NCBI GenBank assembly: GCA_041494705.1
Contig: JBGQBI010000004.1
Span: 210,001-242,000 of the forward strand
Reading direction: 5' to 3'
Source: Candidatus Methanoperedens sp.
GTDB lineage: Archaea > Halobacteriota > Methanosarcinia > Methanosarcinales > Methanoperedenaceae
DNA length: 32,000 nt
Below are positions 369 through 15,141 of the stretch, piece after piece. The notes under the pieces are model-generated. The model was not told the DNA's origin and searched no databases. It worked only from the letters and a program-made list of their open reading frames with translations. Within the stretch, counting starts at the first letter, position 1; each line of letters starts with the position of its first letter. The translations under genes were made by a program, and so were the position numbers.

Positions 369-581
369 ATGAGAACATTCCTTGTATCCATTCAGAAGGA
401 AGACAAATTCTTTGTTGCAAGATGCCCTGAGCTTGGTGTAACCTCACAGGGAGAAACCCTTGAAGAAGCGCAGGCAAACATCAAGGAGGCCATCGAACTC
501 TATATCGAAAGTTTCGGTGAAGACCTGCCTCGCGAGACATCCAAACCTTTCTGGACAACAGTTGAAGTAGCCTATGCCTAA
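369..581 (+). CDS. hicB: HicB-like antitoxin (UPF0150-type fold, no DNA-binding extension)
   Basis: 70-aa ORF. The segment FVARCPELGVTSQGETLEEAQANIKEAIELY is typical of HicB/UPF0150. It overlaps the downstream hicA start by 8 nt. Confidence 0.8.
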   Translation: MRTFLVSIQKEDKFFVARCPELGVTSQGETLEEAQANIKEAIELYIESFGEDLPRETSKPFWTTVEVAYA

Positions 582-801
582 ACTGCCTGTAATATCTGGT
601 AAAGAACTTGTCTCTGCATTAAAAAAGGCAGGATTTGTGGAAGTTCGTCAAACGGGCAGTCACGTTTCTCTTCAAAAAGTCACGCCAGAAATAACCTATA
701 AAACTGTTGTTCCACTGCATCGGGAACTTGCAAAAGGGACACTTCTTGATATTCTTCATCAGACTGGTTTGAGTAGGAAAGACCTGCTGGAATTGCTTTA
801 A
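574..801 (+). CDS. hicA: HicA mRNA-interferase toxin (YcfA family)
   Basis: 75-aa ORF. The segment ISGKELVSALKKAGFVEVRQTGSHVSLQK is the HicA signature. It is translationally coupled to hicB. Confidence 0.8.
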   Translation: MPKLPVISGKELVSALKKAGFVEVRQTGSHVSLQKVTPEITYKTVVPLHRELAKGTLLDILHQTGLSRKDLLELL

Positions 802-1023: not shown

Positions 1024-1061
1024 CTGAACCGATATAAGTAATGAGTTATTTATCAGGTATC

Positions 1062-1112
1062 AGGTGATACAAAATGAATCACATCAAAAGAAGGAATCGC
1101 CTTTGTCTCTGA
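1062..1112 (+). promoter_or_regulatory. Translation-start module copy A (SD AGGTGAT, ATG 1074, AGAAGG-N6-CTTTGT, 0-frame TGA 1110)
   Basis: The 0-frame reads atg aat cac atc aaa aga agg aat cgc ctt tgt ctc tga (MNHIKRRNRLCL). The module is homologous to copies at 10813, 5911(-), 9457(-) and 9707. Confidence 0.7.
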
Positions 1113-1299
1113 TAAAGGCAAAGTACAGAAAACAACTCCGGTTCTCAATACGTTGAAGGAGTGGCGTGAGTTTGAATACTCACGGGCACAGAAAACAACT
1201 CCGGTGCTTGAAACACTCGATGCAATGATAGCAAGAGCAGAGCAGGAATTGGCTGCTGAATCGAATAATGAACGAACAGTTAATTTTAGAGGTCGATAA
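1078..1299 (+). CDS. Small protein (about 73 aa) in the +1 frame of module A; start mechanism unresolved
   Basis: The frame is open for 74 codons and ends 2 nt before the dsrE-like ATG. It has an internal in-phase duplication QKTTPVL(N/E)TL (1126-1155 and 1189-1218) in which 4 of 5 differing codons are synonymous. There is no ATG/GTG/TTG before codon 50. Confidence 0.6.
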   Translation: MTSKEGIAFVSDKGKVQKTTPVLNTLKEWREFEYSRAQKTTPVLETLDAMIARAEQELAAESNNERTVNFRGR

Positions 1300-1301
1300 A
1301 C

Positions 1302-1631
1302 ATGACAAATTTATTATTAGTATTGTCCAAAGACCCGTATACAACCGAGATACCCAATCTCGTGCTGGATATCGGTTTAAATGCCAAGGCAAAGAAGGGC
1401 AACAACGTCTCCCTGTATCTTGTGGAGGACGGGGTTACCGCTGCAAGGAAAAGCGAATTCGGAAATAAACTTCAGGATGCTAAAAAGAAAGGCATCAGAA
1501 TTCTCGCAGATGATAAGGCTGTGCAGTCAAGAGGACTTGACGGCAACTTGGTTGCTGGCGTGGAAGTAAAGGAAATAGGCACCCTTCTCGACCACATAGT
1601 TGAGGACAACACGAGAGTGGCATGGTTCTGA
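1302..1631 (+). CDS. DsrE/DsrF/DsrH-family sulfur-relay protein (Cys-less, DsrH/TusB-like position)
   Basis: 109 aa. The N-terminal beta-strand LLLVLSKDPY and the motif KAVQSRGL are typical of the DsrEFH fold. It contains no cysteine. Confidence 0.65.
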   Translation: MTNLLLVLSKDPYTTEIPNLVLDIGLNAKAKKGNNVSLYLVEDGVTAARKSEFGNKLQDAKKKGIRILADDKAVQSRGLDGNLVAGVEVKEIGTLLDHIVEDNTRVAWF

Positions 1632-1641
1632 GGTGATAGGA

Positions 1642-2022
1642 ATGGCAAACAACGGCAATAGCAAAACCTTAACAATCGTATCGATAAACGGACCATATCG
1701 CGATGAAGCGGCATATACACTCATCAGGCTCGCCCATGCTGCAAAGGAGAAGGGTATCAATGTCAACTTCTTCAACTACCTTGACGGTACAATAATCGGA
1801 CACCGTGACCAGGGACCGAAGGAGTTCCCTGTTGTGGAGTCACTTTTTGGCACAGTGCTCAAGAAGGGGCTTAAAAATCCTAAGACCGATGCAATCGCAT
1901 GCATAAAATGCACCGATGCCCGCGGTGTGACAAAACAGCAGACTGAAGGCGTAGTCATCGGCGGGTTATATGACCTCGGTGAATGGACAGCGGAATCGGA
2001 TAAGACAATACTACTGGGGTGA
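1642..2022 (+). CDS. DsrE/TusD-like sulfurtransferase subunit (active-site Cys present)
   Basis: The ATG at 1642 is preceded by AGGTGATAGG. The motif IACIKCTDARGV matches the DsrE/TusD Cys-x-x-x-x-RG active-site region. Confidence 0.7.
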   Translation: MANNGNSKTLTIVSINGPYRDEAAYTLIRLAHAAKEKGINVNFFNYLDGTIIGHRDQGPKEFPVVESLFGTVLKKGLKNPKTDAIACIKCTDARGVTKQQTEGVVIGGLYDLGEWTAESDKTILLG

Positions 2023-2027
2023 AAAAT

Positions 2028-2402
2028 ATGAGCAAGAAAGTAAACATAATCGTGACCCAGCCACCCTACGGCAAGGAAGACGCATACAGCGCAATACCTC
2101 TTGCCGAGACGCAGGCTGCGGCAGGCAACTCGCCTTCAATCACTTTCGTGAGCGGAGGCGTGCATTCGGTGGTGAAGGGACAGAAGACAGGGTACGGCGA
2201 AGCTGCCGTATGGCAGAAAGATGTGCCGAGCGTGGAAGCTACCATCATCAAGGCAAAGGAGAGCGTCAGGTTTTATGCACTTGAGGCTGACCTGAAAAAA
2301 AGAGGTGTAGCTGACGGCGAAATTATCGAAGGAGTATCGAAGCTGAACATCGATGACCTCACGAACAGGATACTGGAGAGCGAGGTAACACTGGTGTTCT
2401 GA
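2028..2402 (+). CDS. DsrF/TusC-like sulfur-relay subunit (Cys-less)
   Basis: The ATG at 2028 follows GGGGTGA. The segments VNIIVTQPPYGKEDAY and LEADLKKRGV are DsrE/F-family features. Confidence 0.65.
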   Translation: MSKKVNIIVTQPPYGKEDAYSAIPLAETQAAAGNSPSITFVSGGVHSVVKGQKTGYGEAAVWQKDVPSVEATIIKAKESVRFYALEADLKKRGVADGEIIEGVSKLNIDDLTNRILESEVTLVF

Positions 2403-2403
2403 G

Positions 2404-2637
2404 ATGGGAATAGTTCACGACTTCGAACTGGACGTTAGGGGCGAGGCATGCCCCTATCCTTTAATCAGGACGAAACAGCAGGTGGGCAGGCTTCAAAAGG
2501 GCGAGGTGCTCAAAGTCCTTGCCAGCGACCCGGTGGCGCCGCAGAATATCGATGCGTGGGCAAAAAAATCGGGGAATGAACTGCTGGCTGTGGAAGTAAA
2601 CAACAGCACCTACAATATCTTTGTCTGGAAAGGCTAA
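2404..2637 (+). CDS. tusA: TusA/SirA-family sulfur carrier
   Basis: 77 aa. The segment LDVRGEACPYPLIRTKQ carries the CPxP motif, followed by LKVLASDP. Confidence 0.85.
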   Translation: MGIVHDFELDVRGEACPYPLIRTKQQVGRLQKGEVLKVLASDPVAPQNIDAWAKKSGNELLAVEVNNSTYNIFVWKG

Positions 2638-2731
2638 TCCCAACTTTTTTTTAAAACCTCCAAAGCGCATAATAAGAGCAATTTTTGCCTGCACCTTAAA
2701 TTACAATAAACCGGAAATTCATGGGATATAT

Positions 2732-2950
2732 ATGCATAAATTAGACGCAAGAGGCAAGGTATGCCCACTGCCCCTGTTTTATACCAAGAAAGAAATCGAT
2801 GAGTTGAAACCCGGGGAAGAGCTTGAAGTACTGACTGACGATGCAATCGCAAAAGATACGATTCCACGGTGGAGCAGGGAACACGGGCATGAAATAGTTA
2901 AGGTCGAGGATTCAGGCCGCGATTTTAGAGTGGTTATAAGAAAACGCTGA
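2732..2950 (+). CDS. tusA: TusA/SirA-family sulfur carrier, second paralogue
   Basis: 72 aa from the ATG at 2732. The segment LDARGKVCPLPLFYTKK carries CPxP, followed by LEVLTDD. It is separated from the first tusA by a T8 run. Confidence 0.85.
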   Translation: MHKLDARGKVCPLPLFYTKKEIDELKPGEELEVLTDDAIAKDTIPRWSREHGHEIVKVEDSGRDFRVVIRKR

Positions 2951-3260: not shown

Positions 3261-5387
3261 ATGGAGTTAACAAAAATGATAAAAATATTTACAATATTTG
3301 CACTTATGTTCATACTGGCAATACCTGCGACAGCAGCCAATATAACAAAAGTCGAAATTCACGGCGTGGTTTTTGACGAAAAATCAAGTACCTACAATAC
3401 CACATTGCAATGGGATGCCCAGAACTTCACAGGATTCTATTATAACTTTAACGGGGGGAAGTCAAGTGAAACTCTCAACATTACTCAATCTGCTTCAAGC
3501 TTAACAGCCAGCAGCAGGACTATTCAGAAGGATAATCTGTTTTATAATACCTCGCGCACAAGCCAGAACTACACCCTGTTCACTGCAAAAGGGTGGAAAG
3601 TTGAGAACGGTCTTACAAGTACCTTTACAAAAAATACCACAGGAGGCTATTATGCACAGCTTGGATGGTTCGGTGATCGGTACGTGGCTGTAAACGGGAA
3701 AGCAAACAAATTAGCTAAACTGATTAAAGAGCAGAAGATAGAGGAAAAACAGATATTAAAGCTCGGCACAGCATGGGACCTCGGGGAAGGTTACAATATT
3801 ACGGTTGAATCTCTTGATACAACAACTTCCCCAAGGCAAGCATGGCTTTCCCTTAACAAGGATGGAAAAGTTCTTGATAATAGGGTCGTGAACGAGGGTG
3901 ATGTTTATACTTACGTTGAGAAAAGCGTGAGCGGCGAATCGGATGTCCCAATATTTGTTACTTATGTGGAAAGTATCTTTACTGGTGGAGAGGGCATGTC
4001 TGTGCTTGTTCAGCTCAGATATACCTGGCTCATCTCCCGGAATGTGCTTGAGGTCAAGGTAGCAGATAAGTTCGGCGTGTTTGAGGTAAAGGAGGCAAAT
4101 GAAAACTACCTGCTTCTTTACAATAAGGACAAGACCGTAAACCTTGACCAGAACACAGTGCAGCCACTTTACAGCGATCTGAAATTTAAAGTAGCGGATA
4201 AGGATACAGCTTTGCGGTTCTATCCGATTCTTGAAAAAACAGCGCCCGGAAAGTATGAGATACGGGGAGGCGCCTATGACCAGACCCAATACAAGAATCT
4301 TGTCTGGGATGCCCAGAGGTTCCCTGGCTTCTATTATAACTTTAACGGAGGAAAGTCAAGTGAAACCCTCAACATTACTCAATCTGCTTCAAGCTTAAAT
4401 GCCAGCAGCAGGACTATTCAGAAAGAGAATCTGTTTTATAATACCTCGCGAACAAGCCAGAACTACACGCTGTTCACTGCAAAAGGGTGGAAAGTTGAGA
4501 ACGGTCTTACAAGTACCTTTACAAAAAATACCACAGGAGGCTATTATGCACAACTTGGATGGTTCGGCGATCGGTACGTGGCTGTAAACGGGAAAGCAAA
4601 CAAATTAGCTAAACTGATTAAAGAGCAGAAAATAGAGGAAAAGCAGACTTTGAAGCTCGGCACAGCATGGGACCTCGGAGAGGGATACAATCTTACAGTC
4701 GAAGCACTCGATACAAAAGCATCTCCAAGGCAAGCATCGCTTTCACTATCCAGGGATGGCAAAATTCTTGATACCAAAGTAGTGAACGAGGGGGATGTCT
4801 ATACCTACACCGAGAAAAGCGTTAGTGGCGAGTCCGATGTGCCGATATTTGTAACCTACGTGGAAAGCATATTCACAGGCGACGAAGGCATGTCCGCCTT
4901 TGTCCAGCCCAGGTACACATGGCTTGTCTCGCAGAATGTGTTTGAAGTTAAAGCAGGAGATAAGTTCGGCGTATTTGAGGTAAAGGAAGCTAATGAAAAC
5001 TACCTGCTCCTCTATAACAAAGACAAGCAGATAGACCTCAATCAGAACACTGTCCTGCCGTTATACGGCGATCTGAAATTTAAAGTAGCGGATAAGGATA
5101 CAGCTTTGCGGTTCTATCCCTTTATAGAGCAAACAATCCCATCCAATAAGGAATTAAAAGCTGCAAGTGCAGTTCCAACCACTACAGTGCCCACAATAAC
5201 ACAGGCGTCATCTGCAATATCATCCTCGCTGCAAGCGGCAGCGCCAGAAGCTGCATTAGCCCCGGTGCAGACAGTCGTGTCGATAAAAACAGAAAATAAC
5301 ACATCTGCACCAGGGCAGTGGTACTGGGTTCTGTTTGCAATCGCGGGTCTTGTTACAACAGGATACCTGGTGTTGAGGAGAGATTAA
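3261..5387 (+). CDS. S-layer protein with tandem DUF1608-type domains, Thr/Ser/Ala-rich stalk and C-terminal TM anchor
   Basis: 708 aa. It has a signal peptide (IFALMFILAIPATAANIT), two 298-aa repeats, the stalk PTTTVPTITQASS, and a C-terminus PGQWYWVLFAIAGLVTTGYLVLRRD. This architecture matches Methanosarcina-type S-layer proteins. Confidence 0.9.
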   Translation: MELTKMIKIFTIFALMFILAIPATAANITKVEIHGVVFDEKSSTYNTTLQWDAQNFTGFYYNFNGGKSSETLNITQSASSLTASSRTIQKDNLFYNTSRTSQNYTLFTAKGWKVENGLTSTFTKNTTGGYYAQLGWFGDRYVAVNGKANKLAKLIKEQKIEEKQILKLGTAWDLGEGYNITVESLDTTTSPRQAWLSLNKDGKVLDNRVVNEGDVYTYVEKSVSGESDVPIFVTYVESIFTGGEGMSVLVQLRYTWLISRNVLEVKVADKFGVFEVKEANENYLLLYNKDKTVNLDQNTVQPLYSDLKFKVADKDTALRFYPILEKTAPGKYEIRGGAYDQTQYKNLVWDAQRFPGFYYNFNGGKSSETLNITQSASSLNASSRTIQKENLFYNTSRTSQNYTLFTAKGWKVENGLTSTFTKNTTGGYYAQLGWFGDRYVAVNGKANKLAKLIKEQKIEEKQTLKLGTAWDLGEGYNLTVEALDTKASPRQASLSLSRDGKILDTKVVNEGDVYTYTEKSVSGESDVPIFVTYVESIFTGDEGMSAFVQPRYTWLVSQNVFEVKAGDKFGVFEVKEANENYLLLYNKDKQIDLNQNTVLPLYGDLKFKVADKDTALRFYPFIEQTIPSNKELKAASAVPTTTVPTITQASSAISSSLQAAAPEAALAPVQTVVSIKTENNTSAPGQWYWVLFAIAGLVTTGYLVLRRD
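3351..5138 (+). repeat. Intragenic tandem duplication, 2 x 894 nt (298 codons)
   Basis: TGGGATGCCCAGA occurs at both 3411 and 4305. An identical peptide run of more than 70 aa (LFYNTSRTSQ...KIEEKQ) is present in both halves, with only about 6 nt differences, all synonymous. Confidence 0.95.
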
Positions 5388-5485: not shown

Positions 5486-5557
5486 AGCCAGAGTCCGGAC
5501 TCGAACCGGAATGAAATCGCTCTGCTGGCGATTGCGTAGCCGCTCTGCCACCCTGGC
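5486..5557 (-). tRNA. tRNA-Cys (GCA)
   Basis: Cloverleaf read by hand on the minus strand. The acceptor stem is GCCAGGG/CUCUGGC. The T arm is UCCGG-UUCGAGU-CCGGA. The anticodon stem is AUCGC/GCGAU with loop CAGCAGA. The discriminator is U and no CCA is encoded. Confidence 0.85.
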
Positions 5558-5604: not shown

Positions 5605-5892
5605 TTATCCGGTCGGCACCCCCGGGGCATTATTCAGCCCGTACAGGCTCTGGCGCGCATCCTGGAAATAGAAGCGCTCCTGCAATATATTTTCTTCTTT
5701 CAGTCTGTTCAGGGCGTATCTGACTGTTCTTGCCGGAAGATAGGTTTCCCTCGCAATATCCTTTTGTGTCAAAAAGCCGCTGGATTCCAGCACTTTGAAA
5801 ACAAGCTTTGCCGAGGGAGGTAAATGATCTATCTTCGCGTTCGCTAACTCAAATAGCTGTCCATTGTTTGCAAAGACGATTCCTTCTTGAAT
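5605..5892 (-). CDS. Small winged-helix transcriptional regulator; +1 frame of module C; start unresolved
   Basis: The segment LPPSAKLVFKVLESSGFLTQKDIARETYLPARTVRYALNRLKEENIL is a typical archaeal wHTH. The first canonical start (GTG 5793) would delete helix 1. The frame is open up to 5892, where a TGA overlaps the module ATG. Confidence 0.7.
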   Translation of the reverse strand: MQEGIVFANNGQLFELANAKIDHLPPSAKLVFKVLESSGFLTQKDIARETYLPARTVRYALNRLKEENILQERFYFQDARQSLYGLNNAPGVPTG

Positions 5893-5911
5893 TCATTTTA
5901 AAATTCTCCAG
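5849..5911 (-). promoter_or_regulatory. Translation-start module copy C (SD GGAG, ATG 5896, AGAAGG-N6-CTTTGC, 0-frame TGA 5851-5849)
   Basis: The 0-frame reads atg aat tca aga agg aat cgt ctt tgc aaa caa tgg aca gct att tga (MNSRRNRLCKQWTAI). Confidence 0.7.
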
Positions 5912-9000: not shown

Positions 9001-9108
9001 TCATTTCGCCCCGAATCCTCCGCGCAGGAAGCGCCTCAGGTCTTCTTCATCTATGTTTTCGACATTTTCGTTTACATCATCGTATATTTCTTCTTTTTTA
9101 TAATCCAT
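9001..9108 (-). CDS. 35-aa acidic micro-protein (MDYKKEEIYDDVNENVENIDEEDLRRFLRGGFGAK)
   Basis: An SD GAGGT lies 4 nt upstream of the ATG. The ORF is in the same frame as the upstream Zn-ribbon ORF. Confidence 0.45.
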   Translation of the reverse strand: MDYKKEEIYDDVNENVENIDEEDLRRFLRGGFGAK

Positions 9109-9171
9109 ATTTACCTCGAATTGGAAAAAGGAGCGCAAATGGATAGGATAAAAGCGCCCCTTTTTCTTTTG

Positions 9172-9318
9172 TCATTTTAACAGCGCCTCCTCTATGGCAA
9201 AAGCATCCATGCCGCAGTCCACGCATGATACCATGGCAATTCCTTTGATGAAATCTGCGCTTGTTATCGGTATTGCATGCTTGCAGTTGGGGCACCTGTA
9301 TTGTCTGGCAGAGGTCAT
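9172..9318 (-). CDS. 48-aa zinc-ribbon protein (CPNC...CVDC)
   Basis: The product is MTSARQYRCPNCKHAIPITSADFIKGIAMVSCVDCGMDAFAIEEALLK. An SD GGTGG lies upstream. Its ATG overlaps the upstream ORF stop as ATGA. Confidence 0.6.
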   Translation of the reverse strand: MTSARQYRCPNCKHAIPITSADFIKGIAMVSCVDCGMDAFAIEEALLK

Positions 9319-9443
9319 ATCAGCCACCAGACATAATCCTGTACCCGAATGCGCTCCGGCTTTTCCTGCTTGCCTTTCAGCAATGCGTCCTTGCTAACTA
9401 TACCATCGGGGGCAAAGTAAACCCCTTCTTTCTTCTTGATTTG
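9315..9443 (-). CDS. 42-aa protein in the +1 frame of module D; start unresolved
   Basis: The product is QIKKKEGVYFAPDGIVSKDALLKGKQEKPERIRVQDYVWWLI. It has no canonical start, and its stop overlaps the Zn-ribbon ATG. Confidence 0.45.
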   Translation of the reverse strand, partial: QIKKKEGVYFAPDGIVSKDALLKGKQEKPERIRVQDYVWWLI

Positions 9444-9457
9444 TCATTTTAACACCA
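9394..9457 (-). promoter_or_regulatory. Translation-start module copy D (SD GGTG, ATG 9447, AGAAGG-N6-CTTTGC, 0-frame TAG 9396-9394)
   Basis: The 0-frame reads atg aca aat caa gaa gaa aga agg ggt tta ctt tgc ccc cga tgg tat agt tag. Confidence 0.6.
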
Positions 9458-9649
9458 GAAATTCCATAGTTTTCATACATATTCAAATCACGTAAACAGG
9501 CTATATTTGATAGCTATATGCGGTTTTCAGGAACAAAAGGGCAATAATTACCCGGAACTTTCAGCATTGAAACAACAGAAAAATGATTCTTCTAAAGTTT
9601 AACCCATACGGCAATTATTGTCGTGATTGTTCTGGTATTGCATTAGATA

Positions 9650-10135
9650 GTGACAAAATATGCCTGTATATCCAGGGATATATATCCTGTCCGCATGGAC
9701 AGATGCGGTGAAAAAAACCAATGTCAAATAAAAGAAGGGATCATTTTTGCCACCTATAACAAATGGGATGGTATAGAATCATCGATAGATGAGGGTACTG
9801 AGGAAAAACTAAAGGTCTCCGCGTATGAGAACTACGCAGAAGAAGGGCTGAGAAAACCGGAATACCGGCGCATGCGAATAAGCATTGAAAGATTGGCTCG
9901 CACACTTGCAGTAATTGAAACAAGCTGGCAGCGTGCGGGCAGGCATCATGCGCTTCGGGAGCTTGAAAACGTACTCACCCGGCAGCATGAAGTTGAGAGG
10001 GATGCAGAGAATATCGAAGATGTATTCCTGCGCGGATACATCTATGAGCAGCTCGATATTGTTGCTGCAACAAGACGGTCTCTGGCTGAAGAAGTCAGAT
10101 GGGATATCGAAGCCAGTAAGAAAACTTGGGAATAA
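9650..10135 (+). CDS. Hypothetical protein (137-161 aa); its frame is the +1 frame of module F
   Basis: The long ORF contains QIKEGIIFATYNKWDG at the module. Candidate starts are GTG 9650, ATG 9695 (no SD), or the module ATG 9721 with a shift. No family was recognised. Confidence 0.6.
   Translation: MTKYACISRDIYPVRMDRCGEKNQCQIKEGIIFATYNKWDGIESSIDEGTEEKLKVSAYENYAEEGLRKPEYRRMRISIERLARTLAVIETSWQRAGRHHALRELENVLTRQHEVERDAENIEDVFLRGYIYEQLDIVAATRRSLAEEVRWDIEASKKTWE
9707..9759 (+). promoter_or_regulatory. Translation-start module copy F (SD GGTGA, ATG 9721, AGAAGG-N6-TTTTGC, 0-frame TAA 9757)
   Basis: The 0-frame reads atg tca aat aaa aga agg gat cat ttt tgc cac cta taa (MSNKRRDHFCHL). Confidence 0.6.
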
Positions 10136-10436: not shown

Positions 10437-10812
10437 AACGATGCACCCTGTTTGATTTTTGTGCATCCTTTTGGAATAATTGTGTCAACATCTGCCTCTT
10501 TCTGTAATTATATATGTTTGCCGGTATTATCTTTCAATTGCGATTGATATGATTGAAGAAATATGTAACCAGTCCCGAATAAATAACTCCTGTCGTATGA
10601 AGGTTGAAAATAGAAAACCCAGAAATGATATCGAGTTTGATAAAATTGTTAAATTCCTGAATGACCAGAAAGCAGTGCTGGATTATGCAGGTTTGAATTA
10701 ACTGCATTTTTTGCCGCAATTATTCGGTTTTTGTAATCATCGTTCCAATTATCGCCTGTTTCTCTGCATATTTATATGTGCCTGCTTATTTGCGCTTGCT
10801 TATTTCATAAGC

Positions 10813-10860
10813 AGGTGAATTAAAATGAATACAAGAAGGAATCATCTTTGCCGTCACTGA
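10813..10860 (+). promoter_or_regulatory. Translation-start module copy B (SD AGGTGAA, ATG 10825, AGAAGG-N6-CTTTGC, 0-frame TGA 10858)
   Basis: The 0-frame reads atg aat aca aga agg aat cat ctt tgc cgt cac tga (MNTRRNHLCRH). Confidence 0.7.
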
Positions 10861-10969
10861 TGACAACAATTTAATGAATAGATATATAAAACATAGTGCA
10901 GAATTCCTGCATATCCGGGATTTCCTGCAACAACAGAAAATTATTCTAAATAATTCGAGGTGGAATTAA
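10829..10969 (+). CDS. 46-aa ORF in the +1 frame of module B, stop overlapping the pstS start (TAATG)
   Basis: The product is IQEGIIFAVTDDNNLMNRYIKHSAEFLHIRDFLQQQKIILNNSRWN. The frame is open across AT-rich DNA. It has an internal ATG at 10874. Confidence 0.4.
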   Translation: MQEGIIFAVTDDNNLMNRYIKHSAEFLHIRDFLQQQKIILNNSRWN

Positions 10970-12006
10970 TGAAAGGAAAAATTATCACAATTATACTAAT
11001 TACAGTCATCACAGGTGCATTATTATCAGGATGCATCGGTAATCCAAAGTCTGAAACCCAGTCCACGCCTACCGCTGCTGTCACTACAACACCGGCATCA
11101 TCCGGAGCCACGGCTGTACAGACCGCTGTAAGCTCAAAGGAACTTGAGGGCACTATAACGCTGTCAGGCGCATTTGCTCTGTACCCTATGGCTGTGCGCT
11201 GGGGCGAGGAGTTCCAGAAGCTGCACCCCAAGGTCAAAGTTGATATTTCGGCAGGAGGCGCGGGCAAGGGCATAGCTGACACACTTGGCGGTCTCGTTGA
11301 TATCGGCATGATTTCAAGAGACGTTGATCCCTCGGAGATTCAGAAGGGCGCATATCCAATCGGCGTGACCAAGGATGCCGTTGTGGCCACAGTCAATGCC
11401 AAGAACCCTGTGCTTAATGATCTCCTGAGCAAAGGTGTCAAAAGAAAGACTTTTGCGGATATATATATCAATGGAACAGTAAACTCATGGGGCGATGTCG
11501 TAGGGAAACCTGAAATAAAACAGGAAATACATGTATATACCAGAAGCGATGCATCGGGTGCGTCTGATATATGGGCAAAGTACCTCGGCGGTAAACAGGA
11601 AAGTCTCAAAGGCACAGGCGTTTACGGCGACCCCGGACTGCTTGCTGCTGTGCAGAAAGACCCCCTGGGCATAGGTTATAACAACTACAACTATGCCTTT
11701 GATATGAAGACCGGGCAGCCTGTATCGGGCATCCGGATAATATCATTTGACGTAAATGGGAACGGCGTAGTTGACCCTGAAGAGAATATAAGCACCAAGG
11801 AAAAAACAATTGCAGCCATTAAAAACGGAGTGTTCCCGAGTCCGCCTGCGAGAGTTGAATTATTTGTAACCAAAGGAAAGCCCACGGGAGTTACTTCCGA
11901 ATTTATCAGATGGGTTCTCACAGACGGACAGAAGTATGTGGATGAGGTGGGTTACATACAGTTGTCGAAGGAAACGCTTGATGGTGAGTTGAAAAAGGTT
12001 GAATGA
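10969..12006 (+). CDS. pstS: Phosphate ABC transporter substrate-binding lipoprotein PstS
   Basis: The ATG at 10969 follows GAGGTGG. It has a lipobox-like LLSGC, a Thr/Ala-rich linker, and SGAFALYPMAVRWGEEF...ISAGGAGKGIADTLGGLVDIGMISR. Confidence 0.9.
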   Translation: MKGKIITIILITVITGALLSGCIGNPKSETQSTPTAAVTTTPASSGATAVQTAVSSKELEGTITLSGAFALYPMAVRWGEEFQKLHPKVKVDISAGGAGKGIADTLGGLVDIGMISRDVDPSEIQKGAYPIGVTKDAVVATVNAKNPVLNDLLSKGVKRKTFADIYINGTVNSWGDVVGKPEIKQEIHVYTRSDASGASDIWAKYLGGKQESLKGTGVYGDPGLLAAVQKDPLGIGYNNYNYAFDMKTGQPVSGIRIISFDVNGNGVVDPEENISTKEKTIAAIKNGVFPSPPARVELFVTKGKPTGVTSEFIRWVLTDGQKYVDEVGYIQLSKETLDGELKKVE

Positions 12007-12010
12007 GGTT

Positions 12011-12039
12011 GAGGTTTTGCCTTAACCTCCTATTTTTTA
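12011..12039 (+). terminator. Hairpin GAGGTT-N7-AACCTC plus T6 run between pstS and pstC (attenuator candidate)
   Basis: A 6-bp stem is followed by ctatttttta. Confidence 0.35.
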
Positions 12040-12062
12040 TTTTAGTAAAACGTGTATAACTC

Positions 12063-12986
12063 ATGAATGTTAGAAGACTTAAGGATGCTTTTGCAAGCAG
12101 GCTCATGCTGGCTGCCGCTATTTTCTCAAGTTTTCTTGTACTTATTATCGCTTTTGTGCTTTATTGGAGATCAAAGCCGATTTTTGAGGTTAAATCAGTT
12201 GGCGCCCTTCTCTTCGGCAGCACCTGGATGCCTTTTCAGGGAGAGTTCGGTTTTTATCCATTCATCCTGGGTACTCTCTACGTGACGCTGCTGGCTATGG
12301 CAATTTCCGTACCCCTCTCAATACTGAGTGCAATCTATCTTGCTGAGTATGCGCATGAAAACGTGAGGGCAAAGGTTCTCCCGATGATAGATTTGCTTGC
12401 GGGCATACCGCCTGTTGTCTACGGTGTTTGGGGTGTTCTTGCAGTTGTACCGTTGATTGCATATATCGCACCTGTACTGGGAAAGTCCGGGATACCATTT
12501 CTAAATATGAGCGGCTACTCTACCGGTTACAGTTTACTTGCCGGGGGCATCGTTCTTGCAATTATGGTTTTTCCTATTATTATTTCAATCTCGGAGCAGG
12601 TATTGCGGGCTGTACCCTCAGACGTGAGGGAGGCATCCCTGTCGCTTGGCGCAACGAGATGGCAGACTGTAAAGCATGCAGTGATACGCATTGCCTATCC
12701 CGGGATGGCCGCCGCCGTCATTCTTGGATTTTCCCGGGCTATCGGCGAGACCATGGCTGTTTTAATGGTCGTGGGGAATGTCCCGAAGATTCCCACTTCG
12801 GTATTTGATTCCGCATATCCACTGACCGCGCTCATTGCCAATAACTACGGTGAGATGATGTCGATACCGCTGTATGATTCTGCCCTGCTGCTTGCCGCCC
12901 TTATACTGATGCTTGTAATCCTGTTCTTCACTCTGGCTGCCCGGTTGATATTGATAAATATCGAGAGGAGGATGGCGAATGGATAA
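12063..12986 (+). CDS. pstC: Phosphate ABC transporter permease PstC
   Basis: 307 aa and polytopic. It has an EAA-type loop SLSLGATRWQTVKHAVIRIAYPG. Confidence 0.9.
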   Translation: MNVRRLKDAFASRLMLAAAIFSSFLVLIIAFVLYWRSKPIFEVKSVGALLFGSTWMPFQGEFGFYPFILGTLYVTLLAMAISVPLSILSAIYLAEYAHENVRAKVLPMIDLLAGIPPVVYGVWGVLAVVPLIAYIAPVLGKSGIPFLNMSGYSTGYSLLAGGIVLAIMVFPIIISISEQVLRAVPSDVREASLSLGATRWQTVKHAVIRIAYPGMAAAVILGFSRAIGETMAVLMVVGNVPKIPTSVFDSAYPLTALIANNYGEMMSIPLYDSALLLAALILMLVILFFTLAARLILINIERRMANG

Positions 12987-13827
12987 ACTGCGTGAAGAAA
13001 AATTGTTTAAAATTCTGATGCTCGCATCGCTTGCTGTCGTTATCGGGAGCCTCTTCATGGTTGTCGGGGTGATTATATGGAACGGCGTACCTGCGCTCTC
13101 GCTTTCTATGATAACCCAGACACCCAAAGGAGGGTATTATCTTGGAAAGGAGGGCGGTATCCTGAATGCCATAGTGGGTTCCTTATACCTGGCGTTTGGA
13201 AGCGTAATTCTCGCCCTCATTATCAGCCTGCCGGCGGCCTTATCGCTGCAGAAAGACTATATCGGGAGAACAAGGCTTGCATATTATATCAGGCTCTCCC
13301 TCGATGTTCTCTGGGGCACTCCCTCAATCGTGTACGGCGCATTTGGTTTTATCGTAATGTTATATTTAGGTATGCGGGCATCGCTTCTGGGTGGAATAAT
13401 AGTTCTTACTGTTTTGCAGCTGCCGATAATGATAAGATCAATGGAAGAAGTAATAAAAATGGTTCCAAATGAGTTAAAAGAGGCTTCTTATACCCTGGGG
13501 GCGACACGCTTTGAGACAACTTTCGGTGTTGTGGTGAGGCAGGCGCTGCCTGGTATAGTGACCGCGGTGATCCTTTCTTTCGGGCGTGGAATCGGAGATG
13601 CTGCATCCATTCTCTTTACCGCGGGCTATACGGACAGCCTGCCGCGCTCACTCCTTGATCCAGTGGCATCACTCCCCCTTGCAGTATTTTTCCAGCTTGG
13701 CACACCATTCCCGGAGGTGCAGGCGCGGGCGTATGCAAGTGCGCTGATACTTCTTTTTATTGTACTTGCACTCAGTTTAACATCACGATATTTATCCAGG
13801 AAATTCATGAAAAACATTATCAGGTAA
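12979..13827 (+). CDS. pstA: Phosphate ABC transporter permease PstA
   Basis: 282 aa. It contains EASYTLGATRFETTFGVVVRQALPG and overlaps pstC by 8 nt. Confidence 0.9.
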   Translation: MDKLREEKLFKILMLASLAVVIGSLFMVVGVIIWNGVPALSLSMITQTPKGGYYLGKEGGILNAIVGSLYLAFGSVILALIISLPAALSLQKDYIGRTRLAYYIRLSLDVLWGTPSIVYGAFGFIVMLYLGMRASLLGGIIVLTVLQLPIMIRSMEEVIKMVPNELKEASYTLGATRFETTFGVVVRQALPGIVTAVILSFGRGIGDAASILFTAGYTDSLPRSLLDPVASLPLAVFFQLGTPFPEVQARAYASALILLFIVLALSLTSRYLSRKFMKNIIR

Positions 13828-13831
13828 TCCA

Positions 13832-14152
13832 ATGAAAAACTTAAGTTTAATCAAAAGAAGGGGTATGCGAAGCATACCCCCAGACCGGATAAAGCGAGGT
13901 GTCGCTAAACTTTTAGAAAAGTTTATTAAAGACAACACGTATGGCTTTGCCATACGTAAACCTTTAAGAAAGGTTTATCAAAAAACTTTAGGAAAGTTTT
14001 ATCAAACGAGGGGTATGCTGCGCATACCCCAACACTGCGCAAGCCGAAGTATCGGCTTTCAAACGACAGGTATGCAACGCATACCTGAACACCACGTAAA
14101 CCGGGGTATCGGTTTACGTGGACACCGAATAAAGCGAGGTGTCGCTTTTTGA
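13832..14152 (+). other. Array of 11 perfect hairpins filling the pstA-pstB gap; also an uninterrupted 106-codon, highly basic ORF
   Basis: Hairpin coordinates are 13860-13880, 13890-13906, 13907-13924, 13937-13957, 13958-13976, 13982-14000, 14010-14030, 14041-14058, 14067-14087, 14093-14120 and 14129-14147. The ATG at 13832 lies 4 nt after the pstA stop. The stop overlaps the pstB TTG start. Confidence 0.8.
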
Positions 14153-15141
14153 AAAGCCATATCAGCATCCAGAATGTCAATGCATTCTACAGCGACCATC
14201 AGGCACTTCGGGGCATAACTGTTGAAATACCGCAAAAGCAGATAACAGCTATCATCGGCCCGAGCGGATGCGGGAAGAGTACCTTGCTCAAGTGTTTCAA
14301 CAGGCTTATCGACCTCACAGACGGAGCAAGAGTATCAGGGAAAATAATAGTGGATGGCATGGATGTGCTCAGCGCCAGCTCTGAAATAACCGAAATAAGG
14401 CGAAGGATGGGTTTGCTTCCGCAAAAGCCAAACCCGCTCCCAATGTCGATATACGATAATGTTGCATACGGGCCCAAGCTGCATGGAAAACCGGACAAGA
14501 AAGAACTGGACGAAATTGTTGAAAAATACCTGAAAATAGCTGGTTTGTGGGATGAAGTGAAAGACCGCCTGAAGTCTCCGGCATCGAAACTCTCCATAGG
14601 GCAGCAGCAGAGGCTCTGCCTTGCAAGAGGACTGGCTGTCGAGCCCGAAATTATCCTGTGCGATGAGCCGACATCAGCATTAGACCCGGTCTCATCGCAG
14701 CATATCGAGGAGCAGCTCCTGAAACTCAAGAAGGATTACACCATCGTGATAGTTACTCACAACATCCACCAGGCAATGAGGCTTGCTGACTACGTTATCC
14801 ATCTATACCTCGGTGAAATCGTGGAACATGGGCCCGCAAATGAAGTGTTTGAAAACCCGAAAGAAGAGAGGACGCGGGCGTATATTAACGGGACTTTCCT
14901 TGTTGATGTGAAAGTGGATAAAGAGATAAATCTGAAAGGAAATGTGTGCCCGTATAATTTTGTGTATGCCAAACAGGCGCTGTCTGCGCTTCCTAAAGGA
15001 AAAATCCTTAAGATAATCGTGGACGATCCCACGGCAGTAACCGAAGTTCCGAGGGGCATGGAAGCCGACGGTCATGAGGTATTAAGCGTGAATCAGCAAA
15101 ATAAAACGGATTGGGAGATAATCATAAGGAAGCAAAGCTAA
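14149..15141 (+). CDS. pstB: Phosphate ABC transporter ATPase PstB fused to a C-terminal TusA-like domain
   Basis: It has Walker A GPSGCGKST, signature LSIGQQQRL and Walker B IILCDEPTSALD. The PstB core ends at RTRAYINGTF (about aa 250). Residues 256-328 read INLKGNVCPYNFVYAKQAL...ILKIIVDDP...GHEVLSV...WEIIIRK, which is the TusA pattern. Confidence 0.85.
   Translation: MKSHISIQNVNAFYSDHQALRGITVEIPQKQITAIIGPSGCGKSTLLKCFNRLIDLTDGARVSGKIIVDGMDVLSASSEITEIRRRMGLLPQKPNPLPMSIYDNVAYGPKLHGKPDKKELDEIVEKYLKIAGLWDEVKDRLKSPASKLSIGQQQRLCLARGLAVEPEIILCDEPTSALDPVSSQHIEEQLLKLKKDYTIVIVTHNIHQAMRLADYVIHLYLGEIVEHGPANEVFENPKEERTRAYINGTFLVDVKVDKEINLKGNVCPYNFVYAKQALSALPKGKILKIIVDDPTAVTEVPRGMEADGHEVLSVNQQNKTDWEIIIRKQS

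Follow-up and report, generated by a model that had tools for sequence, protein, structure and literature searches.

A candidate +1 frameshifting cassette ahead of winged-helix regulators and sulfur-related genes in Methanoperedens and other archaea

A stretch of 32,000 nucleotides (nt) from Candidatus Methanoperedens sp. (GenBank assembly GCA_041494705.1, contig JBGQBI010000004.1, positions 210,001 to 242,000 of the forward strand; hereafter the window) carries five copies of a short translation-start cassette in which the start codon linked to a Shine-Dalgarno (SD) sequence lies one frame away from the open reading frame (ORF) that follows. Comparison of these copies with those of related loci suggests that the cassette is a portable translational recoding element, in which ribosomes probably move into the +1 frame at the sequence YUU-UGY by a slip resembling that of the bacterial prfB gene.

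Five copies of the cassette in the window

The copies named A, B, C, D and F in a preliminary description of the window were all recovered at the coordinates given there. They share one layout: an SD, an ATG, a reading in the frame of that ATG (frame 0) through AGA-AGG, six bases, and then YTT-TGY. The SDs preceding the ATG are GGTGAT, AGGTGA, GGAG or GGTG. The copies are as follows.

Cassette A, 1063..1112, plus strand: SD GGTGAT 1063-1068; ATG 1074-1076; SD-like element AGAAGGAATC 1089-1098; P-site CTT 1101-1103; A-site Cys codon TGT 1104-1106; frame-0 stop TGA 1110-1112.
Cassette B, 10813..10860, plus strand: SD AGGTGA 10813-10818; ATG 10825-10827; SD-like element AGAAGGAATC 10834-10843; P-site CTT 10846-10848; A-site TGC 10849-10851; frame-0 stop TGA 10858-10860.
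Cassette C, 5849..5911, minus strand: SD GGAG; ATG 5896-5894; SD-like element AGAAGGAATC 5887-5878; P-site CTT 5875-5873; A-site TGC 5872-5870; frame-0 stop TGA 5851-5849.
Cassette D, 9394..9457, minus strand: SD GGTG; ATG 9447-9445; SD-like element AGAAGGGGTT 9429-9420; P-site CTT 9417-9415; A-site TGC 9414-9412; frame-0 stop TAG 9396-9394.
Cassette F, 9707..9759, plus strand: SD GGTGA; ATG 9721-9723; SD-like element AGAAGGGATC 9733-9742; P-site TTT 9745-9747; A-site TGC 9748-9750; frame-0 stop TAA 9757-9759.

As the preliminary description had it, the frame-0 reading of each copy ends after 11-17 codons with the peptides predicted there, the codon after YTT is Cys (TGT or TGC) in all five, and the frame that stays open is +1, its ORFs ending where they were said to end. 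Cassette F has its +1 frame open upstream as well (ATGT, not ATGA), which the same description had implied. The degenerate sixth copy that it proposed (E, minus strand, ATG at 9175) is not a member of the set, having neither AGAAGG nor YTTTGY and an ATG in frame with a 25-codon ORF of its own. The string GAAGG-N7-TTTG matches the window 5 times against 0.51 expected, a number that none of the shuffled sequences reached (0/100).

The phase between start codon and long frame is conserved

The comparison was extended to 35 genome loci and 39 metagenome loci fetched around orthologues of the F protein (loci are cited below by L numbers), in addition to the window. One contig, L065 (Ga0124853_1516766), was left out because its changes (T5 to T4, C5 to C4, a broken C gene) are typical of homopolymer sequencing errors and mimic in-frame variants. 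About 135 non-identical copies led by ATG were found on about 70 contigs, and about 10 further copies carry GTG, TTG, ACG, ATT or ATA at the SD-linked position. They head six gene families: in A, B, D and G the long frame is a bridge ORF leading to the next gene, in C it is a winged-helix regulator and in F a protein of 133 residues of unknown function.

When the SD-linked ATG was picked in any frame, the long ORF lay at +1 in 124 of 126 non-identical copies, the two exceptions being one chance match and one mis-picked ATG; the +1 relation noted in the window, which the preliminary description had proposed to search for in relatives, is thus upheld in them. The distance from ATG to cassette takes the values 1, 7, 10, 13, 16, 19, 22 and 31 nt, so that every insertion or deletion (indel) has been a multiple of three, and it differs inside families (13 or 10 in F, 19 or 16 in D, 10 or 1 in C, 22 or 31 in G). 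In a test based on orthology, with no use of the motif, the cassette was in phase at 59 of the 69 loci holding the F core.

Stop codons between the ATG and the cassette are distributed very unevenly among the frames, being present in frame 0 in 1/112 copies, in +1 in 73/112 and in +2 in 21/112. The sole copy with a frame-0 stop (L020, L049) is a truncated remnant with its gene body lost and its SD damaged, for which reason its TGA was rejected as a sign of an early shift. Stops in +1 are seen in F-type copies, where ATG-TTA-AAT or ATG-CTA-AAT gives TGT-TAA or TGC-TAA, and in B-type and C-type copies, where ATG-AAT-TTA-AGA gives ATT-TAA-GAA. In the A orthologue of L027, which has ATT in place of ATG, a +1 TAA stands two codons before GAA. 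A start in frame 0 followed by a conserved body in +1, with no usable +1 start, is one of the general marks of +1 frameshifting, and the cassette loci display it.

The copies with ACG, ATT or ATA at the SD-linked position are found at L015:5409, L018:9435 and L043:5460 (all D), L027:4485 (A) and L076:309; those starting with ACG have a GTG within the SD that is likewise in frame 0.

A compact form heads the winged-helix regulator in other archaea

The C regulator family has 3474 database homologues, many of which appear to begin with MIVFV, VIVFV, MVFV or MYFA, and the DNA of these carries a compact cassette, ATG-AGK-GAT-CGN-TTT-TGY. Outside Methanoperedenaceae this compact form heads the regulator in Methanoregula, Methanothrix, Methanohalophilus, Methanolobus, Methanocella and ANME-2 (anaerobic methanotrophic archaea, group 2), with the following starts.

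Methanoregula: ggtaat-acact-ATG-AGT-GAT-CGT-TTT-TGT
Methanohalophilus mahii: GGAAGGTGAA-ataac-ATG-AGG-GAT-CGT-TTT-TGT
ANME-2: GGTGAA-ataaaa-ATG-AGT-GAT-CGT-TTT-TGT
Methanothrix soehngenii: AGGTGAA-cagtaaa-ATG-AGG-GAT-CTA-CTT-TGC
Methanolobus: AGGAGAAA-atataaa-ATG-AGG-GAT-CGC-TTT-TGT-TGA
Methanocella: AGGTGGTGAAA-attcc-ATG-AGG-GAT-CGT-TTT-TGC

In every one of these organisms the regulator ORF is at +1 and a TGA overlaps the ATG in that frame. Compact copies have their ATG at the position usually held by AGA (e.g. ATG-AGG-AAT-CGT-CTT-TGC), so that the +1 frame reads TGA-GGA-ATC, and some copies have a frame-0 stop directly after the Cys codon. With +1 closed by TGA-GGR on one side and frame 0 closed after Cys on the other, the long frame can be entered only within GGR-ATY-NNY-TTT-GYN. 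A second gene bearing the cassette lies close by in both Methanocella and M. soehngenii. We regard the cassette as ancient.

Gene calls have not coped with this arrangement. Recorded regulator starts are ATC at the cassette in M. mahii (L083, CP001994) and M. soehngenii (L085/L086), GTG in Methanoregula (L080) and TTG in Methanocella (L089), and in Methanolobus sp. WCC4 (L088) the regulator is called from an ATC at a codon further downstream. Among the Methanoperedens gene calls the bridge ORFs of A, B and D (A', B' and D') are absent and C is shortened to 62 amino acids (aa). The annotation problem with cassette-led genes is systematic.

Constraint acts on nucleotides and includes an SD-like element

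Several codons of the cassette, read in +1, are more strictly fixed than coding requires (GAA, GGR, ATY, TTT and GCC). TTT is always used, GAA is never GAG, ATY is never ATA, and GGR is replaced once, by GGC; genome-wide, by contrast, TTC is about as frequent as TTT, 39% of Glu codons are GAG, Ile is most often encoded by ATA and GGY accounts for half of Gly. Variation in RAUY is wobble-compatible with GAUC of the 16S rRNA and synonymous codons are excluded, which argues that the constraint is on nucleotides. In a count of synonymous against non-synonymous changes, meant to place the shift, the few variable sites proved to be transitions that seem conservative in both frames. In the regulator family the motif is followed by an unconserved linker of about 10 to 35 residues, and the motif therefore lies outside the regulator fold.

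The candidate shift site itself is conserved at the nucleotide level across species, another general mark of +1 frameshifting. Among 168 matches to a relaxed pattern, which include some chance matches, 91 have CTT and 77 have TTT in the P site, and the next base is always T. All copies have TGC or TGT in the A site, and none has TGA. C follows UGY in 83% of 78 strictly defined copies (74% of the relaxed matches). YUU-U is the only re-pairing site common to all copies, codons before AGA or AGG being unrelated.

It had been suggested that AGAAGG(A/G) acts as an internal SD. A pairing element is indeed present, but AGAAGG itself is dispensable, since it is replaced by AUGAGG or AUGAGU in compact copies and by AAAAGU in one F lineage; the putative stimulator is best described as RG(G/U)RAUY, complementary to GAUCACC of the 16S tail. 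In four lineages the fifth base past the G of GAAGG has changed from G to U, which produces a perfect GUGAUC or GUGGUU. The predicted pairing energy has a trough of -6.1 kcal/mol at the cassette and of -6.7 at the real SD, on a background of about -1 to -2.5, with a 16S tail that we take to be GGAUCACCUCCU from general knowledge and the SD consensus rather than from a Methanoperedens rRNA read, no Methanoperedens rRNA or 16S 3' end being present in the fetched loci. The element ends 2 nt before YUU, at a spacing to YUU of 0-1 units as against a median of 3 for start codons. The element could pair with the ribosome only when the P site had reached YUU or passed it.

Two other roles for parts of the motif were considered and rejected. 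A hungry pause at the AGA-AGG tandem is contradicted by these being the commonest Arg codons and by their replacement in working copies, and the UUG inside YUUUGY, which has an ideal spacing to the SD-like element for an internal start, opens the third frame, which is short and unconserved.

Natural in-frame variants have lost the T run

In five lineages the ATG linked to the SD is retained, and loss of one T from the run has brought the gene into frame. In L079 (F), T5 became T4 and a G became A, so that CGTTTTACC now encodes MSNERRDRF-TF, and a normal D cassette is present on the same contig. The F-like genes of L072, L034 and L071 have a T run one base shorter (AAT-CGT-TTT-GGT-GCG, giving ..NRF-GA). 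P0196 reads ATG-AAT-GAT-CGT-TTT-GTA (MNDRF-V) and P0197 reads ATG-AGG-GGT-CCT-TTT-GCA (MRGPF-A), the latter with a degraded GAUC element. L023 (D) came into frame differently, through an upstream loss of 1 nt, and its CTTTG has become CTCTG. Two Methanocella loci, L036 and L038, have F homologues with a canonical start and no cassette.

Orthologues with a plain in-frame ATG, which the preliminary description had said would speak against recoding, do therefore exist (L023, L079, the Methanocella F homologues, P0196, P0197), but in all except L036 and L038 the T run is shortened or broken. This loss counts for the frameshift model and not against it: once the frame is fixed the cassette can be dispensed with, and its T run is left to decay. 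In-frame relatives without an intact shift site are also what one would generally expect beside a +1 frameshifting gene.

A model of the shift and the alternatives to it

Of the readings between which the preliminary description could not decide, a +1 slip at YTT-T before the Cys codon, aided by an internal SD-like element, is the best-supported model; the conserved phase, the closed +1 frame and the nucleotide constraint all point to it, short of proof. According to this model, ribosomes would initiate at the SD-linked AUG (GUG or UUG in a few copies) and decode 4 to 11 codons in frame 0, until YUU (Leu or Phe) in the P site meets UGY (Cys) in the A site. The pause would come from this sense Cys codon, not from a stop codon. 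The peptidyl-tRNA would then re-pair one base on, from CUU or UUU to UUU, and translation would go on in +1 with GYN (Ala or Val), the slip being stimulated by RG(G/U)RAUY as it pairs with 16S GAUCACC 2 nt before YUU. Unshifted ribosomes would end after a peptide of 6 to 17 residues. For C and F the shifted frame would be the protein itself; in A, B, D and G the bridge ORF ends at or beside the next start, and the cassette would thus gate the downstream genes by translational coupling. We infer from these comparisons that the shift occurs, that its place is YUU-U, and that its rate would rise when Cys-tRNA(Cys) is scarce. The predicted junction peptide of C is LANNGQLFELANAK if the slip is at YUU-U and EGIVFANNGQLFELANAK if +1 is read earlier; the supplements of a Methanosarcina mazei ribosome-profiling study held no peptide matching cassette products.

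Some observations weigh against a slip placed at YUU-U. Within families, the few substitutions in the stretch from GAA to YTT tend to be radical in frame 0 but are synonymous or conservative in +1 (GGG/GGA; ATC/ATT/ATG; GTT/ATT; GAA to GAT in L014; AGG to TGG; CGT to TGT; GGT/GAT), as would be expected if +1 were already read there. Changes of the opposite kind are also found: CGT, CGC and CGA leave Arg unchanged in frame 0 and give Val, Ala and Asp in +1. Conservative +1 variation upstream of YTT-T had been raised as an objection in the preliminary description; it is real and the objection stands, although wobble with 16S GAUC can account for the variation. The spacing of the SD-like element overlaps that of D-type starts, in which the real SD is just 2-3 nt before the ATG. 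Deletions in T runs are mutational hot spots, so in-frame fusions alone do not place the shift, and L023 keeps GAAGGGGTTTAC intact though a shift is no longer needed there. Slow decoding of UGY is an assumption of the model.

An alternative is that the shift happens earlier, at AGG-R (Arg-tRNA moving onto GGR) or through out-of-frame decoding before GAA/GGR, so that the proteins carry (E)-G-I/V-x-F-A/V. Such a shift would explain why changes in GGR, ATY and the next codon are synonymous or conservative in +1, why in-frame L023 retains E-G-V-Y, and why L020 and L049 have at the AGA position a TGA that is synonymous in +1. We nevertheless think it unlikely: re-pairing from AGG to GGA is poor, AGA is preceded by unrelated codons, Arg is most often encoded by AGA and AGG, compact copies would have to shift on the start codon itself, out of reach of the SD-like element, the invariant TTT-G-Y-C would go unexplained, L020 and L049 are truncated remnants, and the hypervariable linker after the motif makes selection on amino acids improbable. 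The long ORF might instead be reached with no frameshift at all, from an AUY start inside the cassette, the AUG mini-ORF then being a regulatory upstream ORF that pauses at its Cys codon. Most copies do have ATC or ATT at this +1 codon (ATG once, in L033), the recorded genes of M. mahii and M. soehngenii are called from ATC, and the phase requirement could come from the correct placing of the Cys codon. The codon is GTT, though, in part of the D family (14/168 relaxed matches), and it is without a usable SD, since the SD-like element lies right against it and the distance to the real SD is at least 13 nt, with a perfect AUG between; no conserved near-cognate start with an SD at working distance was found. 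A ribosome paused on UGY would moreover cover AUY, not expose it, and neither the invariance of TTT nor its loss in in-frame variants would be explained, all of which leaves this reading improbable. Initiation at the ATC, ATA or ATT that follows the TGA, the competing reading of the preliminary description, is refuted: in F orthologues the codon after TGA or TGT can be ATA or ATC but also ACC, TAC, GTC or TTC, with +1 stops intervening, and a start at an Ile codon after TGA is likewise ruled out by TGA-GGR in compact copies and by the +1 stops in 73/112 copies.

The remaining alternatives keep or discard recoding in other ways. A dedicated decoding factor, e.g. a tRNA reading a four-base codon YUUU or UGYC, could replace SD-stimulated slippage; both strings are conserved, a tRNA-Cys gene lies in the island, and L020 and L049 have a tRNA-Leu(GAG) gene close to F. 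We consider this quite improbable, as the tRNA-Cys has a normal anticodon loop of 7 nt (canonical in 7 of 8 genomes), the 40 loci scanned yielded no unusual tRNA and the complementarity to the 16S tail would be left without explanation. That the conserved segment is a DNA or RNA operator, its phase to the ATG being incidental, is very unlikely: the genes do have a common promoter motif, GCCTGTWT, and hence probably a transcriptional regulon too, but spacer indels are all multiples of three in six families and in five outside lineages (four genera and one ANME-2 assembly), the segment is always within the mini-ORF in one phase, and in-frame variants lose the T run. Least credible of all, and refuted by the conservation data, is an artefact or decay, with homopolymer errors or pseudogenes and the short peptides alone being made. 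Contig L065 does show homopolymer errors; against this, more than 70 independent assemblies share the arrangement, complete genomes of cultured species among them, CTTTG is not a run prone to errors, and conserved proteins are encoded by the +1 ORFs. Slippage during transcription and read errors in the T run were rejected since most copies have only T3 and more than 70 assemblies agree.

Products and genes behind the cassettes

The long frames and the genes to which they lead in the window are listed here.

1090..1299, plus strand: A' bridge ORF, +1 frame, 69 codons from GAA; its stop is 2 nt before the ATG of the DsrE-like gene at 1302; conserved in L027.
1302..2950, plus strand: operon following A', with three genes of the DsrE family and two of the TusA family (sulfur relay).
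5486..5557, minus strand: tRNA-Cys(GCA) gene, 47 nt beyond the C regulator; ARAGORN found no other tRNA gene in the window.
5605..5886, minus strand: C regulator ORF, winged-helix (HTH_24), +1 frame, 93 codons from GAA.
9318-9172, minus strand: zinc-ribbon gene; its start overlaps the D' stop.
9315..9428, minus strand: D' bridge ORF, +1 frame, 37 codons; its TGA overlaps the zinc-ribbon ATG (ATGA).
9734..10135, plus strand: F ORF, 133 codons in +1, protein of unknown function.
10835..10969, plus strand: B' bridge ORF, +1 frame, 44 codons; its TAA overlaps the PstS-like ATG (TAATG).
10969..15141, plus strand: PstSCAB-like ABC transporter downstream of B', its ATPase with a C-terminal TusA domain.

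C had been described as a recognisable winged-helix protein, and Pfam HTH_24 matches it with E=2.4e-6. The label pstS given to the gene after B' holds in part, that protein being a divergent PstS-like one below the NCBIfam cut-off, with PstC, PstA and PstB partners that pass. Bridge ORFs are fused to the gene they lead to in some relatives, B' in frame to the PstS-like gene in L016 and D' directly to the zinc ribbon in L018, L032, L043, L064 and L074. The bridge ORF of the G family stands ahead of another unknown gene with the junction TAAATG. The F protein is restricted to Methanoperedenaceae apart from distant Methanocella homologues, and its core is 56-98% identical across cassette-bearing orthologues.

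The rejected copy E corresponds to a separate small ORF at 9098-9175 (minus strand) of the window, MTKEKGALLSYPFALLFPIRGKYGL; an SYP(F/L)A core and the flanking DNA are kept 3' of the zinc-ribbon gene in other genomes, and the frame relation is different in L011. Upstream of cassette B, a palindrome, GCTTATTTCATAAGC, at 10798-10812 (plus strand) abuts the SD; its arms are kept in orthologues and its loops differ (GCTTattacAAGC, GCTTAtttgtcTTAAGC), and it could be either a hairpin or a site for a dimeric regulator.

A possible link to cysteine and sulfur

The ORFs that depend on the cassette are nearly free of Cys (0/947 residues in C, 3/3649 in F, 0/126 in A and 1/582 in B, on a background of 10.9 per 1000), and the 947 residues of the C regulator in 11 orthologues include neither Cys nor Met. 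A tRNA-Cys gene directly follows the C gene in 8 loci (the window and seven others). Elsewhere, too, sulfur genes adjoin the regulator: in M. mahii these are SepCysS (TIGR02539, 512 bits) and a TusA-like gene, in Methanoregula sulfopyruvate decarboxylase and a PALP enzyme, and in Methanolobus a sulfate permease, a sulfite-reductase-like gene and TusA.

Together, the invariant Cys codon, the nearly Cys-free products and the context of tRNA-Cys, SepCysS, TusA and DsrE lead us to infer cysteine sensing. We tentatively put forward, as a reading somewhat less likely than not, that the cassette is a direct sensor of Cys-tRNA(Cys) charging based on frameshifting, conserved across Methanocellales, Methanomicrobiales, Methanotrichales and Methanosarcinales and expanded to a multi-gene regulon in Methanoperedens. 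Under sulfur shortage, SepCysS or CysRS would fail to keep tRNA-Cys charged and the single UGY would stall the ribosome. The SD-like element would drive the stalled ribosome into the +1 slip, and only then would the sulfur-free regulator be made and, by way of the coupled bridge ORFs, the DsrE/TusA relay and the oxyanion transporter.

The tRNA-Cys gene of the window has an A in place of the near-universal U33 (near 5526), its loop reading CAGCAGA and that of all 7 orthologous loci CTGCAGA. The change may be a true mutation, which could make the decoding of Cys slower in this strain, or an error of assembly. In one lineage a gene for tRNA-Leu(GAG), the reader of the CUU slip codon, lies about 1.7 kb from F (L020 11740-11827, L049 7740-7827), which may be a coincidence. 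No Rfam family matched in the window or around the tRNA.

The motif GCCTGTWT occurs in the promoters of D, F and B (9494-9501, minus strand; 9662-9669, plus strand; 10754-10761, plus strand), about 10-15 nt upstream of a TATA-like box, and is conserved in orthologous promoters; it has 7 matches in the window against 1.9 expected. Its sharing suggests a transcriptional regulon on top of the cassette.

The PstB-like ATPase with the C-terminal TusA domain is encoded at 14149-15141 (plus strand) of the window, and a related island (L091 369-1451) has a histidine kinase fused to TusA. These TusA fusions to an ATPase and a kinase link the oxyanion transporter and signalling to sulfur carriers.

Comparison with known systems

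The closest parallel is the programmed +1 frameshift of release factor 2 in bacteria (prfB, AGG-GGG-UAU-CUU-UGA-C). As in prfB, the proposed slip is from CUU to UUU in the P site, an SD-like element lies a few nt upstream, a C follows the A-site codon, a short frame-0 product results without the shift, and the pause would report the shortage of a decoding factor. The slippery CUU-U of prfB is present; the SD-like element is predicted to pair about as strongly as real SDs (-6.1 vs -6.7 kcal/mol, with the 16S tail assumed) and lies at a fixed distance, at a spacing of 0-1 units that overlaps the range of D-type starts; the A-site UGA and the autoregulated release factor 2 are absent. In the cassette the A-site codon is a sense Cys codon UGY and never a stop, the host is archaeal, and the SD-like element pairs with GAUCACC and ends 2 nt before the shift codon. 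The site comes 4-11 codons after the start and serves at least 6 unrelated gene families instead of one autoregulated gene, and the products of these families (winged-helix regulator, bridge ORFs, unknown proteins) are not the decoding factor for the pause codon.

Yeast Ty1 (CUU-AGG-C) offers a second parallel, as there too Leu-tRNA on CUU in the P site slips +1 while a sense codon waits, and the supply of the A-site tRNA sets the rate. The Ty1 pause depends on a rare tRNA-Arg(CCU), has no SD-like stimulator and belongs to a retrotransposon, unlike the Cys codon of the cassette, for which we propose slow decoding and a part in cellular regulation. Antizyme (OAZ) is similar in being a regulatory +1 frameshift that reports a metabolite and controls the matching pathway; it differs in its stop codon (UCC-UGA-U), its sensing of polyamines, its downstream pseudoknot and its eukaryotic hosts. 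Attenuation at trpL, pheL and hisL and the T-box riboswitches are functional analogues in that a short leading ORF or RNA senses the charging of one tRNA and turns on the cognate pathway. They act through transcription termination or RNA structure, need more than one codon for the amino acid that they sense and are bacterial, whereas the cassette has a single Cys codon and its output would be a change of frame with translational coupling. A test for leader-peptide attenuation revealed no run of Cys codons, no alternative terminator hairpins and no Rfam match, and the sequence downstream is hypervariable.

The recoding case of Sulfolobus is the -1 frameshift of the alpha-fucosidase gene fucA1. 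In the literature searched there was no description of the cassette, of the MRDRFC peptide or of the regulator. A review of 2016 listed only -1 candidates for cellular archaeal genes and one likely +1 case, from a haloarchaeal virus. The combination of an archaeal +1 frameshift of prfB or Ty1 type, a pause at a sense Cys codon, a position next to the start and a multi-gene sulfur regulon would therefore appear to be novel. If the model is right, regulatory +1 frameshifting is added to cellular archaeal genes, together with a way of sensing an amino acid, by a single hungry Cys codon and a change of frame, that is unlike attenuation or a riboswitch. Cys-tRNA synthesis and sulfur traffic in methanogens and methane-oxidising archaea are poorly understood, and the cassette points to a candidate master regulator and its regulon. 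It also allows the annotation of genes that are now truncated, missed or given ATC, GTG or TTG starts to be mended.

Other features bordering the island

A HicB/HicA toxin-antitoxin pair (369-801, plus strand) lies directly upstream of cassette A, and DndB-like and N6/N4 methyltransferase genes lie beyond it (L001 1-1786). The island therefore seems to have a defence or mobile patch at its border. The window also encodes an S-layer protein of 708 aa (3261-5387, plus strand), located between the DsrE/TusA operon and the regulator; its two halves, of about 300 residues each, are nearly identical (a PF07752 domain in duplicate).

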